Below are positions 8,262 through 59,800 of a stretch of 64,000 nt of DNA, in pieces. The notes beneath the pieces were generated by a model that searched no databases, was not told where the DNA came from, and worked only from the letters and a program-made list of their open reading frames with translations. Position 1 is the stretch's first letter, and each line of letters begins with the position of its first letter. The position numbers and the translations under genes were made by a program. Source of the stretch: an uncultured bacterium (GTDB lineage Bacteria > Babelota > Babeliae > Babelales > Babelaceae); contig OY970332.1 of NCBI GenBank assembly GCA_963717435.1, forward strand, positions 352,001 to 416,000. The letters are read 5' to 3'.

Positions 8262-9362
8262 ATGAAACACATGAAAAACATCAAACTCAAATTTCTGATC
8301 TTAGGGGCGTTATTAAGTTCAAAGTCTGCTCTACTCTCCATGGCTGACGTCGAGCATGATATGCAAATTGATGCTACATCCATTGAGTACAGCGACCCCG
8401 ACGTTAAAGCACTTCTTTCTATGCATGATGTCGAGCAGGATGACTCGTTAATGGCTACTATGCCTACAGAAGACACTGATAGTCTTATTGATCCTAAACT
8501 ACAAAAATTCTTAAAAGCCAAGGACCTAAATACCTTTAGTGAAGCCGAAAAAACAGAAGTTGCAGAAAATTTGAGGTCCGAGTTGAAGGCATTTTTTTTC
8601 CAAGAATTTTTGCACAGATATGATTCTTTTAACTATGGCGGATACACGGATTACTGCGAAAAACTGGCGCTTGCGGCAGTATATTCTGATTCACCGTTTC
8701 ATAAGCCATCGTTAAACCTAAGATTAGCATTTAGACAGGATAGAGAGATGGCTCGCGAGCTATTATCTGAAATTATAGAAAACAATGGAAAAGCTTCTTG
8801 GATTTCTATTGCTGCTCGATTTGAACTAACCATGCTTGCGACAGAGCTGAATCATAAAGATGAATATACTGATTCCAGCAAATTGGCGGCAGCAAAATCT
8901 ATAATTACACTCTCTAAGCAAGATATAAACAAAAAAACAAAAATTGATGCCTCCAGACTGCTTGTAAGATGTTGGCTATATAAAAACCAGTATCTCCATG
9001 GAACAATCTCTGATATAAACGATGCGATTGTTGGTCTTTTGGACGATTTGGCACAACTGAATTCTTATAAATATATGCTTCACTTGGCCAAATATGGGTA
9101 TGGGCCAGTAAATAAATATATTACAGAATATATAGAAAAAGAGATTGCTGCTATGGAATCGCTTAAACAACTAGGATATGGTTTAGTTCCCACGCAAAAA
9201 TCCCCGAATAGGCCTGAAGCAAGACCAAAAAAAATTGTCGAAGAATTTGCAAATGAGCAAAAATATATTTTTGCGTCTGAAATGGTCCCGCAAGAAATTA
9301 CCAGGCAGCCTAAAAAGCAGCTTAAAAGGGCTGGGAAAAGAAAAAAAGGATGGAAAAGTTGA
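8262..9362 (+). CDS. Hypothetical exported protein with basic C-terminal tail
   Basis: Long ORF; signal peptide then MADVE; ends PKKQLKRAGKRKKGWKS. Confidence 0.7.
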   Translation: MKHMKNIKLKFLILGALLSSKSALLSMADVEHDMQIDATSIEYSDPDVKALLSMHDVEQDDSLMATMPTEDTDSLIDPKLQKFLKAKDLNTFSEAEKTEVAENLRSELKAFFFQEFLHRYDSFNYGGYTDYCEKLALAAVYSDSPFHKPSLNLRLAFRQDREMARELLSEIIENNGKASWISIAARFELTMLATELNHKDEYTDSSKLAAAKSIITLSKQDINKKTKIDASRLLVRCWLYKNQYLHGTISDINDAIVGLLDDLAQLNSYKYMLHLAKYGYGPVNKYITEYIEKEIAAMESLKQLGYGLVPTQKSPNRPEARPKKIVEEFANEQKYIFASEMVPQEITRQPKKQLKRAGKRKKGWKS

Positions 9363-38619: not shown

Positions 38620-39645
38620 TTAAGCCTGGCGTGATTTCAATAATTCAATCAATTTTTTCAGAAAAGCTTTTGTGTCGTACAATCCTGTAGAAAGGTTTCT
38701 GGGGCCTCTACAAAACCAATTTAACTCTCCCCATGACAAATTATCTTTAATAACCTGTTCTTGAACCTTTTTATGCCACGCTTCTGCCCGACTTAATTTT
38801 TCTTCAACCAACTTTGACGCATTTTCAAAAAAATCTTTTGATATATTATTGGGTAATTTATTTAAAATAAGTTCCATAATGCTGATTAAATTGTTTTTTA
38901 ATTCATATCTAACGTTATAATAATCAAATTGTTTCATACCAGAAAGCAATAATTCACCGAGCTCTTCCAGGCTAAGATCTGTGCTAAATTTAAATAAAAT
39001 ATCAAAAAAGTTATAATCGTATTCTTCGATAGCAAATTTTAAATACGGGGCTGCACCTGCTCCTAAATTTAAAAATTCGCGAGCAATCCCAAAGTGATCC
39101 GGATTTGAAATATTTTTTGGTTTAAGCAATTTTCTACGAAAAAGGCTGTTTAAATATTTCAAGTATTCTGGATCAGATTGTATTTTGTTTTTTGACCAAT
39201 TATATGCCTTGAAATTATATGCCACATAGGGAAGATATGATTTGGTTTGAAATTTAGTTTGATATTTTTTAAGATGCGAATTCAAGATCTCGCCAACAAT
39301 ATAAAGCTTTAATTTTTTATAATTAAGCTCTAAAATTTCAGCAGATTTTTCTTGCACATATTTTTCTGTAATTTTCTTAAATTGGCTGTTGGATGTAAAA
39401 GAATCGAAAGCTGCAAGCAATTCTTCTTCAGATTCAAATCCGGGTTCTAGTACATTAATAAAAGCACAAATTGGATCTTTTATATATTCTGGCAAATCGG
39501 GCGTAGTTTCCGTCATGTTAAAAAAATCTGCAAGCACATATTCTTGCTCATTAATATTTCCCACAAGATCAGTCTCCATAGAGAAAATACCAGGGAAAAT
39601 ATTTGTAAATACTAATAATAAAATTATATAAAATTTAAGTTTCAT
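38620..39645 (-). CDS. Hypothetical exported protein
   Basis: Signal peptide + METDL; helical. Confidence 0.7.
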   Translation of the reverse strand: MKLKFYIILLLVFTNIFPGIFSMETDLVGNINEQEYVLADFFNMTETTPDLPEYIKDPICAFINVLEPGFESEEELLAAFDSFTSNSQFKKITEKYVQEKSAEILELNYKKLKLYIVGEILNSHLKKYQTKFQTKSYLPYVAYNFKAYNWSKNKIQSDPEYLKYLNSLFRRKLLKPKNISNPDHFGIAREFLNLGAGAAPYLKFAIEEYDYNFFDILFKFSTDLSLEELGELLLSGMKQFDYYNVRYELKNNLISIMELILNKLPNNISKDFFENASKLVEEKLSRAEAWHKKVQEQVIKDNLSWGELNWFCRGPRNLSTGLYDTKAFLKKLIELLKSRQA

Positions 39646-42183: not shown

Positions 42184-42324
42184 TTAAAGCCCAAGTTTTT
42201 TAAATAGATCTTTAGCGTCTTTAGCGCGAACTAAATTTTTGCCCTTTTTTACGTTCTCAATGGCTTTAAGTGTGCTTTTATTTGGCACGTGAGTGCGTTG
42301 ACACTTATTATTCTTAAAATTCAC
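42184..42324 (-). CDS. Small ORF resembling a DinJ/RelB antitoxin C-terminus (46 aa, not in the ORF track)
   Basis: GTG start: MNFKNNKCQRTHVPNKSTLKAIENVKKGKNLVRAKDAKDLFKKLGL; PNxxTxxAI...DLFxxLG motif. Confidence 0.55.
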   Translation of the reverse strand: MNFKNNKCQRTHVPNKSTLKAIENVKKGKNLVRAKDAKDLFKKLGL

Positions 42325-42474
42325 AAAAATCCCTATCAAAAATAAAATTATAAAGACTTATTTTTTGACAGGCTCTGAAAAGTTATCCCAAACCTGTACA
42401 CCTACACCACAAACCAGAATCACGCCCACGCAAATAATAATATTTCCCCCCGAATTTTTTTATTACGCCAATTA

Positions 42475-43134
42475 TTAGGCCTGAGCAAAGAAGCCTGCAA
42501 CAATTAAAACAAATAATGAACCATAAGCTACAATAAAAAGCGTGACTTCATTTTTATAATGGACTCCCCTTAGGCCTTCTCTTAATTCGTTCAATTCTTC
42601 TTCTTCTCTTTTTTGTTGGGAAAATTCGAGCGCCTCTTTTTCTGTTTGTTGCTTAGACAAGTCAAGAAAGAATAGCTTAAATTTTCTCAAATTCTCATCA
42701 CCCGCATCATAATGATTTATATGTCTTAATATTTCTGCCAAAGTCTTGTGTGAGATTTTTGCATCTTCTAAATCAATTATACATTTTAATGATTCTTCTA
42801 ATTCCTCTAGCTCATTTGGTTTATTTTTTAATTTTTCCAAGCTATTTAGGAATGATTCTGCGGCTTCTGGCTCAATATACTTGAATTTTTTCACCAGTTG
42901 CTCATAATCAACAACTGGTTTCTCATTTTTTGCAGGATCCTGTTTCTTAGAAAAAAAACTTCTTATCAAAGTATTCTTATTTAGCTTATTATTTAATAAT
43001 AAATTTTGTTTCAAAAAGCTTGAATTGCTAAGCTTTATCTTACTTAAATTTTTCAAAGCTTTTGGCCCAAACATGCTAAAAGTATTAAAACTTAAAAATA
43101 AACTCATAAAAAATAAAGATTTTGCAAAATTCAT
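42475..43134 (-). CDS. Exported protein: signal peptide + presequence-like segment + C-terminal TM (paralogue A)
   Basis: Shares IEPEAA, IIDLE and ENLRK blocks with 43181..43834. Confidence 0.75.
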   Translation of the reverse strand: MNFAKSLFFMSLFLSFNTFSMFGPKALKNLSKIKLSNSSFLKQNLLLNNKLNKNTLIRSFFSKKQDPAKNEKPVVDYEQLVKKFKYIEPEAAESFLNSLEKLKNKPNELEELEESLKCIIDLEDAKISHKTLAEILRHINHYDAGDENLRKFKLFFLDLSKQQTEKEALEFSQQKREEEELNELREGLRGVHYKNEVTLFIVAYGSLFVLIVAGFFAQA

Positions 43135-43180
43135 AACTGTTCCTAAAGTATATTTTTAACCAAATTTCTTGAACCCAATA

Positions 43181-43834
43181 TCAATTAGAAATAGATCTTA
43201 GTATTATTAAAAGGCTAAAACCGATCCAGACTCCATACCACCTCTCTCGGTTTTCGGCGCGTTTTTCTTCTTTCAATTTATTTGTCTTTTTATTCTCTTT
43301 TTCTTCTTCTAGTTGACGCTGAGCCTCTTCAGTCTGGTATTTTGACAACTCAAAAATGAATGTCCTAATTTTTCTCAGATTCTTATTTTCTGGGCAATCA
43401 TGTTTTATATATCTCAATATTTCTAACATATTTTTAGGCGATAGGTTTGCGCCTTCTTCCAAATCAATTATGTTTTTTAAATTTCTTAATGCTTCTAACC
43501 CATCTGGTTTATTTTTTATTTCTTCAAAGAAGGCGAGCAATTTTAATGCCGCCTCAGGCTCAATAGAATATCTGAATCTTTCATCTATTTCCTTATAAGT
43601 AATAAAATTTTTGTCTCTGTTAGACTTATGATTCTTAATAGTAGAAAAATCTCTTATTAAAATAAGTGGCTTGGGCCCGATAATATTATTTAAATTATTT
43701 TTTTGATTTAAATAACCTAGATTATTCAGTTTTAATTTATTTAAGCTCTTTAAAGCTTGTGGTCCCCTCAACATAGAAAAACTATTAAAACTTAAAAATA
43801 AACCCGTAAATAACAAAACTTTTGTAAAATTCAT
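43181..43834 (-). CDS. Exported protein: signal peptide + presequence-like segment + C-terminal TM (paralogue B)
   Basis: Tandem paralogue of 42475..43134. Confidence 0.75.
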   Translation of the reverse strand: MNFTKVLLFTGLFLSFNSFSMLRGPQALKSLNKLKLNNLGYLNQKNNLNNIIGPKPLILIRDFSTIKNHKSNRDKNFITYKEIDERFRYSIEPEAALKLLAFFEEIKNKPDGLEALRNLKNIIDLEEGANLSPKNMLEILRYIKHDCPENKNLRKIRTFIFELSKYQTEEAQRQLEEEKENKKTNKLKEEKRAENRERWYGVWIGFSLLIILRSISN

Positions 43835-43945
43835 AAAGTACCCTGAAGCTAAAAAATTTATTTAATTTAAGTAATTTTACTAGACATACATAATATATTT
43901 TTTCAATAATAAGCAAAGTTATATAGCTATTAAAAGTAATAAACT

Positions 43946-44035
43946 CATCCCTCGATACTTTCTACTTCGCCAAGGCTCCGTAGAATACTCCCAGGCTTCG
44001 TGCAAGACTTCGCCGGGCGCGGAGGGACGAGCGGG
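43946..44035. repeat. Palindromic repeat element (copy 7) with nested insert
   Basis: catccctcgatac...tactc[ccaggcttcgtgcaagacttcgccgggcgcgg]agggacgagcggg. Confidence 0.85.
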
Positions 44036-44089
44036 GGAAATAAATTTTTAGTAATAAGTATGGTTAAAAAAGTTAATGGGAAAAAGGTA

Positions 44090-46018
44090 ATGGATATAAA
44101 TTTTTTAAAATATAAAGCTTATAAGTTAAGAGAGTTATCAATTAAAGCAACAACGCAAGCGGGCAGTGGGCACCCAACTTCATGTCTTTCAGCAGCAGAT
44201 ATAGTCGCAGTTTTATTTTTTGATGTCATGAAATATGACCCACAAAATCCCAAAAATATTAATAACGACAGATTTATTTTATCAAAAGGGCATGCGGCGC
44301 CGTTATTATATGCCGCCTGGGAACAAGTTGGTGTAATCACAGAAAAAGATCTATTAACTTTAAGACAGTTCGATTCAAATTTAGAAGGTCACCCGACGCC
44401 AAGATTTAAATACAACGAAGCAGCAACCGGGTCACTGGGCATGGGCCTATCAATTGGTGCGGGATTTGCTCTCAGCGCAAAATTAAATGGGTTAGACTTC
44501 AAAACTTATGTGCTTATGGGTGATGCAGAAATCGCCGAAGGACAAATTTGGGAAGCAGCAGAAATCTCTACGCATTATAAACTTGATAACTTAATTGGCA
44601 TTGTCGACGTTAACAGACTTGGTCAAAGCACAGAAAACTTAGACGACCATAATTTAAATAAAATAAAAAACAAATTTGATGCTTTTGGTTGGCAGACTTT
44701 TGAAGTTAATGGACATGAAGTTAAAGAACTGGTTGAAGTTTTTGCGGCAGCACAAAAAATTAAAAATAAACCCGTTATGATTCTTGCCAAAACTTTTAAG
44801 GGTCACGGGATCTCCGATGTCGAAAACAAACTTGGTTTTCATGGCAAAGTTTTCCCTCAAAAAGATCTTGCTAAGATTCTTGATGAACTTAAAAATAGAT
44901 TTAAAAAAGATTCTGAGTATCAGGAAAATAGTAATTGGGAGCCTGAGAAGCCCGACCGGTCAACCGGACAACTAACCGCTCGTCCCGAGTGTTTTCAGAG
45001 TGCAAGCGAAGAAAATGTATCGAGGGATGGCGGCAAAAACCATGGCGAGAGCGCGATAAAATTACCAAGCCCGGAATATAAAGTTGGCGAACAGATCCCA
45101 ACAAGAAAAGCATACGGACAGGCACTGGCGCAACTGGGCAAAGTTTGTGAGCAAGTTGTAAGTTTAGATGGTGATGTTAAAAACTCTACGTTTGCAGAGA
45201 TATTTGAGGCTGCATTTCCAAAAAGATTCTTTCAGTGTTTTGTGGCAGAACAAAATATGGTCAGCATGGCAGTTGGGCTTGCAAGCAGAGGCAAGTTGCC
45301 ATTTGTTTCGACTTTCGCAAGCTTTATAACCAGGGCGCATGACCAAATCAGAATGGCGGCAATTGGCAGATCCAATATAAAAATAGTCGGATCCCATGCC
45401 GGGGTTTCTATCGGGGAAGATGGGCCATCTCAAATGGGGCTAGAGGATATAGCTTTAATGCGCACTGTTCCTGAGTCTGTAATATTATACCCGTGCGATG
45501 CTGTGAGCACCCAAAATTGCGTAGAACTAATGGCAAATTACAATTCCGGAATTAGTTATTTAAGAACAACAAGAGGGGCAACTGCTTGCATTTATGACCC
45601 ATCAGAAAAATTTGAGCTTGGTGGGTTTAAAGTTTTAAAAAAATCGTCCCAAGATTTGGTTTGCATAATAGCAGCAGGAATTACAGTTTTTGAAGCTTTA
45701 AGGGCTCACGAACTTTTAGACAAGAAAGGGATAAAAGCACGGATAATAGATCTTTATTGTGTAAAGCCAATAAACGCGCAAACACTAGCAAAAGAAATTT
45801 CAGAATCATCAGGCAGGTTAATAACGGTCGAGGACAGCTATATTGAGGGAGGAATTGGGGAGGCTATATGCACGGCTCTAAAAAACAGATCTTTTTATAT
45901 AGAACACATGGCTGTAACCAAATTGCCAAGATCAGGTTCTCCTGAGGAACTATTGGCATTTGAGGAAATAGATCATCAGTCGATTATTAATATGACAGAA
46001 AGAATGGTAAAGCAGTAA
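44090..46018 (+). CDS. tkt: Transketolase (animal-type subfamily) with in-frame repeat in the interdomain linker
   Basis: [20 protein letters not shown], GDAE...[21 protein letters not shown]. Start reassigned to ATG 44090. Confidence 0.92.
   Translation: [642 protein letters not shown]
44976..45029. repeat. Palindromic repeat element (copy 8), inside tkt
   Basis: ccgctcgtcccgagtg-ttttcagagtgcaagcgaagaaaat-gtatcgagggatg. Confidence 0.9.
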
Positions 46019-52136: not shown

Positions 52137-52225
52137 CATCCCTCGATACATTTTTCTTCGCTTTCGCTCGAAAAACACTTCCAGGCTTCGTGCAAGACTT
52201 CGCCGGACACGGCGGGGCGAGCGGG
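52137..52225. repeat. Palindromic repeat element (copy 9) with nested insert
   Basis: catccctcgatac...cactt[ccaggcttcgtgcaagacttcgccggacacgg]cggggcgagcggg. Confidence 0.85.
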
Positions 52226-59096: not shown

Positions 59097-59800
59097 ATAA
59101 CAAGTTTTTAGCGAGATAAATTTGGTAAAAAATATTTTGTAATTACTTAAAGATACAGGATTTATTAAGAAAAAATAAGCAAAAAAAGACTCGCGTTTTG
59201 CGAGTCGATCTCTAGGTTTTGCTTTTGTTTTTTTCGCCTTCCTAGCTTTAGATTTTTCCTTTTTTACACGGTTATTGACTTCAATAAGTATAATAAAAAA
59301 ATCTGCAAGTCGTTTACGATCAGCAAAAGACAAAACCATCGGAGCTGGTAAAGTCTTTTTAAGCATATAAATACCTTATGGTCTTAAATTCATAAAACCA
59401 AAAATAAATTATTAAAAAAATTATTAACTAGATTTATTAAACTGGAGAAGCTTACTTACTGAGTAAGCCTAAATTTAGATATAGACAAATTTCAGTAGAG
59501 TTGCTTTTCACAAGCTTATCGGAGAATGTTTGATTCAGGCTCGTTGTCCTGAGGAGTTGTGTGAAAGTCATGATACTCTTCTTAATTATTAAAAAATGTT
59601 TTATTAACATCGTGGATACTATATATACAAAATAAATAATTGCAAGAAAATATTTCAATAATCGCCTCTATCGCCGGCTTGGCGAGCTTCACCCTACTCA
59701 AAACACTATTATTAGATTAATTACTAGTCATAGCTTAAAATTAGTTCGTTAATTTTTGAGATTCTTTAAACATTAAATTTATTTTTTAGGATAAAAGATT

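Follow-up and report, generated by a model that had tools for sequence, protein, structure and literature searches.

The curli subunit CsgA is the one textbook example of a secretion leader behind a signal peptide; its Sec signal peptide precedes a segment of 22 residues (N22) that directs secretion via CsgG. In eukaryotic parasites and complex plastids, bipartite leaders consist of a signal peptide followed by a PEXEL/TEXEL motif, an RxLR motif or a transit peptide. Bacterial effectors with an N-terminal mitochondrial targeting sequence include EPEC Map and EspF and Vibrio VopE; R-x-[F/Y]-S is the R-3 pattern of mitochondrial presequences, and the hydrophobic motif bound by Tom20 is phi-x-x-phi-phi. 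In phytoplasmas, the SVM proteins combine a conserved signal peptide with a variable mature effector. The Dependentiae (Babeliales) live as obligate parasites in protists and are widespread. Signal peptides are encoded by up to 44% of their genes, according to an excerpt of PMC6561590.

The two genes described here lie in a window of 64,000 nucleotides, the whole stretch of DNA analysed and the one to which all coordinates refer, from a Dependentiae/Babeliales energy parasite; its genome has three genes for ATP/ADP translocases and 55 matches to ankyrin domains, indicating that the bacterium lives on host energy. Genes A (42475..43134, minus strand; 219 aa, P0001) and B (43181..43834, minus strand; 217 aa, P0002), with open reading frames positioned as in an earlier note on this DNA, are real tandem paralogues (91 of 215 residues identical, 42%; E 5e-42); the protein family to which they belong in this intracellular bacterium is very small and lineage-restricted. 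Six nucleotides before each ATG a motif can be read from the sequence, the ribosome-binding motif AGGA for A (43141..43144, minus strand) and the ribosome-binding-like AGGG for B (43841..43844, minus strand); no motif of the AGGA/AGGG type stands before Met21 in either gene.

No family passed the cut-offs, the SVM signal included, when A and B were compared with Pfam and NCBIfam and eight relatives with Pfam. The best match in a PDB sequence profile search had an E of 0.18, and the ESM Atlas gave no usable match. A search for relatives of A in a set of 5.8 billion proteins recovered A alone, with no outside relative among 505 candidates, and a profile search of 1.84 billion representatives returned two outside relatives. 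Profiles A3 and A2 each matched one of 261 genomes of the phylum, their own, and P0001 as sole query matched one of 41 relatives. The 528 matches to the A3 pattern in metagenome contigs and 256 in genome contigs yielded no confirmed case.

Both N-termini begin M-N-F-x-K and continue with a hydrophobic core of 11–14 residues and then N-T-F-S or N-S-F-S before Met21. The Sec-type signal peptide of A (residues 1–20; 43075..43134, minus strand) has Lys5, an 11-residue core and T-F-S before Met21, and that of B (residues 1–20; 43775..43834, minus strand) has Lys5 and S-F-S. From Met21 each protein enters a basic leader, with an acid-free run after S20 of 45 residues in A and 41 in B. The leader of A (residues 21–65; 42940..43074, minus strand) contains nine Lys, one Arg and no Asp or Glu, with the end motif R58-S-F-F-S62 (42949-42963, minus strand); that of B (residues 21–64; 43643..43774, minus strand) ends in R61-D62-F63-S64, which includes the first Asp of B after the leader start. 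The tandem pair with a signal peptide and an acid-free basic stretch is thus as the earlier note described it, including the run lengths and end motifs.

The same note described an acidic helical domain and a C-terminal transmembrane helix, and these hold in part. The acidic part spans residues 66–196 in A (42547..42939, minus strand), where it is predicted to be helical at low confidence, and residues 65–197 in B (43244..43642, minus strand), where it is also Lys-rich; Asp and Glu make up 20% and 18% of the respective post-leader remainders. The AlphaFold2 models, built from two- and four-row alignments, are all-helical past the leader, with mean pLDDT values of 49.8 and 48.0 that are too low for a fold search. 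A ends in a 21-residue transmembrane-type helix (residues 197–217; 42484..42546, minus strand) with only Q-A after it and a best 19-residue Kyte-Doolittle mean of 2.46, but B has only a 14-residue hydrophobic run (residues 199–212; 43199..43240, minus strand; mean 1.16) that would be a marginal membrane anchor. The helix is strong in the relative P0003 and absent in P0004 and in the second family, C, D and E.

The same architecture is found in four more genes of this genome (C, D, E and F) and in four metagenomic proteins, giving a set of ten. All ten leaders open with Met-Phe or Met-Leu, so that +1 is Met and +2 is aromatic or Leu, and run for 24–45 residues with no Asp or Glu and a net charge of +3 to +8 over 30 residues; the eight leaders used for the Lys/Arg and hydrophobic moment calculations have 3–10 Lys and Arg each. 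Past the leader, the acidic share jumps from 0% to 16–23% in nine of the ten proteins and to 12% in F. An [R/K]-x-[F/Y] motif is present near the end of every leader (Arg in eight, Lys in two), followed by Ser in about half, and B (R-D-F-S) and C (R-K-Y-S) fit R-x-[F/Y]-S. In eight of ten the motif falls within the final 12 acid-free positions, with a frequency in shuffles of 0.05–0.30. Pro and Gly-Pro are conserved within the leaders. Leave-group-out HMMs did not cross-detect the two leader families, and an hhalign comparison gave a weak alignment (E 0.012, probability 3.5%), limited to the signal peptide and leader, which were in register.

The N-terminal sequences of A and B are best read as being cut by signal peptidase I after Ser20, just before Met21, in agreement with the bipartite leader that the earlier note proposed. 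The residue at -1 is Ser, Gly, Ala or Cys in all ten leader proteins, that at -3 is mostly an allowed one, and one gene of the genome matches the signal peptidase I model TIGR02227 above its threshold (115.6 bits). A start-codon artefact as the source of the signal peptide-then-Met pattern was rejected, as no ribosome-binding core precedes the boundary Met: of 69 genes with a small residue-Met boundary, 38% have the core ahead of the first start and 0% ahead of the boundary Met, with 2.9% for internal Met codons as a control. Codon position 2 is enriched for T in the signal-peptide part.

Alternatively, the N-terminal segment might escape cleavage and serve as a reverse signal anchor. The leader would then be its positive-inside flank in the cytoplasm, where the acidic domain would lie as well, and A and B would sit in the membrane as hairpins with both termini outside. 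The single Lys before the hydrophobic core and four Lys within 15 residues after it would suit such a topology under the positive-inside rule, as given in an excerpt of PMC9360617, and the uncharged stretch of A between Lys5 and Lys25, at 19 residues, is long enough to span a membrane. However, the uncharged core is only 10–12 residues in C, D, E, P0008 and P0009, and the small -1 and mostly allowed -3 residues, as in 114 members of the secretome, point to cleavage on the periplasmic side; we regard an uncleaved anchor as improbable.

The 'restart with Met' to which the earlier note drew attention is present in A and B but is not special to them. By a home-made heuristic (not SignalP), the genome encodes 433 signal-peptide-like proteins, of which 114 have a small residue-Met boundary, and the boundary is present in a relative too; Met at the mature N-terminus is therefore a trait of the whole secretome. 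The ordinary mature N-termini of this secretome are acidic, and the first 30 mature residues have a median net charge of -2 in the strict 69-member class; with +6 and +5, respectively, A and B are at its extreme. Work in E. coli indicates that Sec export favours a neutral or negative early mature region and that positive charge here should hinder export, a cost that would need a strong benefit.

Acid-free basic runs of at least 30 residues are common across the proteome (278 in 1247 proteins), and rare directly behind a signal peptide. Only 14 of the 433 signal-peptide-like proteins have a run of at least 25 residues in this position, and the eight with at least 38 are A, B, C, D, E and three open reading frames of 62–74 aa. 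The median run in the strict class is 1, and 0.07–0.48 proteins with a run of at least 41 are expected among its 69 members. Since paralogues share ancestry, the leader cases represent only two to three independent events.

The signal peptide and leader are the best-conserved part of the proteins in both families, and the cargo is less so. Between A and B, 14 of 20 residues are identical in the signal peptide, 20 of 42 in the leader and 57 of 157 in the rest. Invariant columns are concentrated similarly in the larger alignments: 13 of 20 fall within the first 43 residues in a four-sequence alignment, 24 of 31 within the first 52 residues in C, D and E, and 16 of 20 within the first 45 residues when two metagenomic members are added to C, D and E. 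Conserved residues are encoded by differing codons at 7 of 15 positions in the A/B leader block and at 9 of 29 in C and D, and the DNA upstream of the genes is not alike, which makes this purifying selection and not recent gene conversion. Selection thus acts on the leader. Each family has its own core, of the Q-N-L-L-L type in one and L-L-L-Q-P-K-T-N-L in the other, and this residue-specific conservation is unlike that of loosely constrained presequences. Like A and B, the phytoplasma SVM proteins belong to an obligate intracellular bacterium and combine a conserved signal peptide with small secreted cargo that varies, but their conservation ends at the signal peptide.

This pattern bears on another explanation, that the leader carries no address. 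It would then be a low-complexity, basic spacer in envelope proteins that might, for instance, touch peptidoglycan or anionic lipids, and an AT-rich genome would tolerate it. Such a genome easily makes Lys/Asn/Leu-rich sequence, long acid-free runs are common in the proteome, the enrichment behind signal peptides is modest with so few independent gene groups, and no partner or family is known. A spacer should, however, be the least conserved part, yet only the signal peptide is better conserved than the leader, which shows synonymous changes, and the shared Met-Phe/Leu start and [R/K]-x-[F/Y] end would go unexplained. We consider a spacer quite unlikely.

The earlier note took the leader to be a mitochondrial presequence. 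Exported A and B would then expose a Met-initiated host mitochondrial presequence, imported through TOM/TIM, cut by MPP at R-x and trimmed by Icp55 at Phe or Tyr, by which the bacterium would place effectors in or on the host mitochondrion. The leaders are similar to R-3 presequences (MPP plus Icp55) in their N-terminal position after cleavage, length, positive charge and lack of acid, in the abrupt switch to an acidic sequence, and in the end motif, often followed by Ser, with B and C having the full R-3 pattern; the Met-Phe or Met-Leu start in ten of ten, the selection on the leader and the recurrence of the design in gene groups between which profile searches show no link are all in keeping with this. 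So is the biology of a bacterium living on host energy, as judged from its translocase and ankyrin genes. Signal-peptide-bearing ankyrin proteins of Dependentiae are assumed, in an excerpt of PMC4378268, to reach the host cytoplasm. The statement in the earlier note that Chromulinavorax remodels its host mitochondrion was correct, and an excerpt of PMC6561590 has a relative wrapped by the host mitochondrion; this phenotype belongs to another organism, whose genome differs from this one in reported size and GC.

The sequence properties of the leaders argue against a mitochondrial identity. In a form of the refuting test that the earlier note itself set, against composition-matched controls, the mitochondrial identity fails: when eight leaders were each compared with 2000 shuffles of the same composition, their maximum helical hydrophobic moment did not exceed that of the shuffles, with z values from -1.62 to +2.2 and one of 16 tests nominally below 0.05. 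AlphaFold2 pLDDT over the leader is 26–38. Counts of Tom20-type motifs in the ten leaders are 1, 1, 0, 0, 1, 2, 0, 0, 0 and 0, absent in six and never above shuffles (P 0.46–1.0). The leaders are rich in Lys and Asn and not in Arg, with Lys exceeding Arg in six of the eight counted (9:1 in A, equal in P0003 and reversed in F), and Lys replaces the motif Arg in two of ten. They also differ from R-3 presequences in their bacterial origin, in having a Sec signal peptide in front, conserved Pro and Gly-Pro within, and residues more conserved than the cargo. In A and P0003 the strong helix at the C-terminus should act as a stop-transfer sequence at the bacterial inner membrane, and in a 400-kb sample of one genome of the same family none of 47 proteins with the small residue-Met boundary has a leader longer than 21 residues. 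These sequence comparisons weaken the presequence idea but do not refute it; we judge it unlikely.

EPEC Map and EspF and Vibrio VopE are likewise bacterial proteins read by host import machinery, but they are injected by type III/IV systems and have the targeting sequence at the primary N-terminus, whereas the leader here would be uncovered only by signal peptidase. None of the literature matches listed combines a Sec signal peptide with a mitochondrial targeting sequence. In a wider version, the Dependentiae secretome would look host-made, with Met N-termini on more than 100 exported proteins and presequences on A, B, C, D, E and F read by host organelle import, which on present evidence we doubt.

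A host address other than the mitochondrial matrix would be a plastid-type transit peptide, a nucleolar or membrane-binding signal, or an export element processed by a host protease. The leaders are unstructured, hydroxylated, Asn/Lys-rich and acid-free with no amphipathic helix, fitting transit-peptide-like signals better than presequences, and a conserved leader on variable cargo is a hallmark of host-targeting leaders. The bipartite leaders of parasites and plastids likewise have a conserved leader within about 20–60 residues after the signal peptide and a fast-evolving C-terminal cargo. They are, however, read in the eukaryotic ER/periplastid system, and an ER-based route is closed to a protein that reaches the host cytosol. 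None of RxLxE/Q/D, RxLR and the aromatic +1 is conserved in these leaders; the sequence R-F-L-L-Q occurs by chance in a single protein, C. The targeting sequences of complex plastids are nuclear-encoded, enter the ER co-translationally and require an aromatic residue at +1, whereas these are bacterial genes with Met at +1. Inspection by eye found no PTS2-like or classical NLS pattern in the leaders, and PEXEL, PTS2 and NLS readings were rejected, by eye only. The chance that such an address explains the leaders appears slim.

We tentatively favor, as possible rather than probable, a two-part N-terminal address on fast-evolving orphan proteins, a Sec signal and a basic sorting or processing leader, read by a bacterial envelope or export component. 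The sequences themselves show the two-part architecture, how it is conserved, how rare it is and that a second family has it too; cleavage, judged from the residue pattern, export and the machinery that reads the leader are what we infer. Signal peptidase I would leave the basic acid-free leader of 41–45 residues as the new N-terminus, which would serve after Sec export as a (pro-)peptide for sequence-specific sorting or processing, with [R/K]-x-[F/Y] as its end or cleavage mark. Selection keeps the leader as the acidic helical cargo drifts, and the reader would be the bacterium's own, for example in a step from the periplasm outward; the leader would not be a classical amphipathic mitochondrial presequence. 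A and P0003 most likely stay in the bacterial inner membrane, as type I proteins held by the strong C-terminal helix with a periplasmic body. Membrane retention would not be general, given the weak helix in B and its absence in P0004, C, D and E.

CsgA N22 is a bacterial precedent for this address, similarly a second one read after Sec export, but it is neither basic nor acid-free and has no sequence likeness to the leaders. We know of no bacterial reader of such a leader, and none was found; CsgG (PF03783) has no match in this genome, at 88.8% completeness by markers. Two secretin genes are a possible outer-membrane channel. We note that the acid switch, the length of 24–45 residues and the [R/K]-x-[F/Y] end resemble organelle presequences and count against a bacterial sorting function.

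If host mitochondrial import were the reader, these would be the first bacterial effectors in which a signal peptide masks a presequence; the address for a eukaryotic organelle would stay hidden behind the Sec signal peptide until the protein is exported. Such a bipartite design has so far been known in eukaryotic parasites and complex plastids alone, and the masked presequence would help to explain how such bacteria reorganize host mitochondria. The mature N-terminal Met across the secretome is a regularity of its own, so far unreported, for which any model of secretion in Dependentiae has to account. The leader address is found on fast-evolving cargo in two gene families, and a second, conserved address that follows the signal peptide would offer a concrete, testable handle on how Dependentiae sort proteins past the periplasm.

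Genes A (42475..43134, minus strand, 219 aa) and B (43181..43834, minus strand, 217 aa) are tandem orphan genes lying exactly where the earlier note had placed them, and the paralogy claimed for them is borne out by pairwise protein alignment (91 of 215 residues identical, E 5e-42). Each product starts with M-N-F-x-K, followed by a hydrophobic core of 11–14 residues, N-T-F-S or N-S-F-S, and then Met21, from which a basic leader lacking Asp and Glu runs for 45 residues in A and 41 in B, the lengths previously claimed; the acid-free stretch ends in R-S-F-F-S in A and R-D-F-S in B. The first ATG is preceded at 6 nt by AGGA in A and AGGG in B, and no such motif was seen in the inspected sequence ahead of Met21 in either gene. 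The remainder had been described as an acidic helical domain with a C-terminal transmembrane helix. The acidity stands (Asp plus Glu are 20% of the post-leader part in A and 18% in B), and AlphaFold2 draws helices, but at mean pLDDT values of only 49.8 and 48.0, for which reason the models were otherwise set aside; the terminal helix is convincing in A (21 hydrophobic residues, Kyte-Doolittle mean 2.46), whereas B has a run of only 14 residues (mean 1.16). A 51-aa Lys-rich predicted ORF (42184–42339, minus strand) is located immediately downstream of A.

A short dispersed repeat of about 45–95 nt, GC-richer than its surroundings, is present at 43940–44075 and 52137–52225 of the window with 27 other blastn matches in the genome, and one copy lies between B and a transketolase gene. 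Some copies may be in frame within genes, as the same peptide string is found inside two unrelated ORFs. The transketolase ORF (44000–46018, plus strand, GTG start, 672 aa) has an upstream extension that crosses the repeat, and its start is probably 30 codons later, at a Met at genome position 396090 (642 aa). Near-identical gene pairs are also seen elsewhere: 394-aa signal-peptide proteins at genome positions 229581 and 230783 (plus strand) have their first 45 mature residues identical, and 342-aa proteins at 618258 and 638304 (minus strand) share an identical 59-residue basic stretch.

The restart at Met21 noted previously is real, but it is not peculiar to A and B. A crude gene call gave 1251 genes, with 433 products flagged by an ad hoc signal-peptide heuristic; in 54 of these (12.5%, versus a Met background of 1.9%) Met is the final uncharged residue ahead of the first charged one, and at the predicted cleavage site 114 of the 433 carry Met directly behind a Ser, Cys, Ala, Gly or Thr. 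Window genes with a signal peptide followed by Met start near 8262 and 21983 (both plus strand) and 38620–39645 (minus strand), and 400 kb sampled from a genome of the same family (G004, loci L010–L029) show the same boundary in 27 of 127 cases; the main texts of PMC6561590 and PMC4378268 do not mention the pattern. A start-codon artefact is ruled out, since 38% of 69 boundary-Met genes have a ribosome-binding core ahead of their first start and 0% have one ahead of the boundary Met (internal-Met controls, 2.9%), and the signal-peptide part has coding periodicity. Met21 is thus an ordinary mature N-terminus of this lineage, and the unusual feature of A and B is what comes after it. The usual mature start is acidic: Glu (45), Asp (13), Asn (8) or Gln (5) follows the Met in 71 of the 114 proteins, the median length of the acid-free run is 1, and the net charge over 30 residues has a median of -2 or -1, compared with +6 in A and +5 in B.

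A genome scan for signal-peptide proteins with presequence-like segments, proposed in the earlier note, recovered four more genes, all transcribed on the minus strand: a tandem trio (genome 705090–706756, L003:1591–3257) of C (705090–705659, 189 aa), D (705675–706136, 153 aa) and E (706178–706756, 192 aa), together with F (544202–544504, L004:1203–1505, 100 aa). In each, the signal peptide and a small residue are followed by Met-Phe, a basic acid-free stretch of 24–35 residues, and [R/K]-x-[F/Y]. Eight signal-peptide-like proteins have acid-free runs of at least 38 residues, five being A–E and three ORFs of 62–74 aa. Runs of at least 24 are found in 7 of 10 boundary-class members starting with Met-Phe or Met-Leu versus 4 of 104 others, a link that significance testing overstates because paralogues are not independent. 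A 68-aa ORF (window 59452–59658, minus strand) has a signal-peptide-like start, Met-Leu, and a 30-residue acid-free stretch; hydrophobic and short, it may not be a real gene. Among 1.84 billion representative proteins, an A+B profile found only two metagenomic relatives, P0003 (E 3.9e-9) and P0004 (E 3.8e-4), and a C/D/E profile found two outside relatives, P0008 and P0009; all four show the leader design, and in 260 further genomes from the phylum profile searches found neither family.

By alignment, the leader is the conserved part of both families. Between A and B, identity is 14/20 in the signal peptide, 20/42 in the leader and 57/157 in the rest; 13 of 20 invariant columns fall within the first 43 residues when P0003 and P0004 are included. 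The C/D/E cargo is barely alignable, and 24 of 31 invariant columns lie within the first 52 residues (16 of 20 within the first 45 with P0008 and P0009). Codons differ at 7 of the 15 conserved leader-block residues of A/B and at 9 of the 29 of C/D, and upstream DNA is also unlike between paralogues, which rules out recent gene conversion and points to selection on the leader peptide. Leave-group-out HMMs do not cross-detect the two families, the hhalign match is weak, in register and confined to signal peptide and leader (E 0.012), and their homology is not demonstrable.

The bacterium is a Dependentiae-type energy parasite, as previously assumed, judging from its AlaRS (53–63% identical to those of Babeliales, Dependentiae or TM6 MAGs), three ATP/ADP translocase genes and 55 ankyrin-domain matches in a single 1,198,203-bp contig of 34.6% GC. 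The earlier note's statement that Chromulinavorax remodels its host mitochondrion agrees with the wrapping reported for C. destructans (PMC6561590), whose genome is given there as 1,174,272 bp with 33.7% GC; with these differences the phenotype is not simply transferable to this bacterium.

The earlier note read the leader as a host mitochondrial import signal masked by the Sec signal peptide, which we consider unlikely. A presequence would match its length, charge, absence of acid and sharp change to an acidic body, and [R/K]-x-[F/Y] is within the last 12 acid-free residues of 8 of 10 leaders (0.05–0.30 in shuffles). However, by simple measures other than TargetP or MitoFates, comparison with composition-matched controls, which the earlier note had set as a refuting test, gave no excess amphipathicity or Tom20-type motifs: maximal helical hydrophobic moments do not exceed those of 2000 shuffles per leader (1 of 16 tests <0.05), and the motifs are absent from 6 of 10 leaders and enriched in none. 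Lys exceeds Arg in 6 of the 8 leaders that were counted and takes the motif's Arg position in two, Pro is conserved within the leaders, conservation is residue-specific, and the strongly hydrophobic C-terminal helix of A and P0003 is expected to stop transfer at the bacterial inner membrane and anchor these proteins there.

The safest mechanistic statement on A and B is a two-step address, in which removal of the Sec signal peptide ahead of Met21 (the genome encodes a signal peptidase I) would expose the conserved basic leader to be read after export. Our tentative preference, held at somewhat less than even chances, is that the leader serves in sorting or processing in the envelope or along the export route of the bacterium itself; the host-mitochondrion model is given about half that weight, and a passive spacer, a reverse signal anchor and a different destination in the host share what is left. 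Two secretin-domain genes 5 kb apart (genome 589391–589867 and 594400–594885, plus strand; ORFs of 855 and 958 aa) could give the very large predicted secretome a way out through the outer membrane. By work on E. coli, Sec substrates do not typically have a basic early mature region, and the unusual charge argues for a strong reason to retain the leader; the positive-inside rule is summarised in PMC9360617. A literature search turned up no report on cleavage sites in Dependentiae or on bacterial mitochondrial signals masked by a Sec signal peptide, and the main texts of the Chromulinavorax (PMC6561590) and Babela (PMC4378268) papers do not mention methionine, presequences or targeting peptides. 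The one textbook analogue of a post-Sec leader is the CsgA N22/CsgG pair, and a search for CsgG gave no match in this genome, which markers put at 88.8% completeness. The leader design is a variation on known bipartite leaders, with a putative function.
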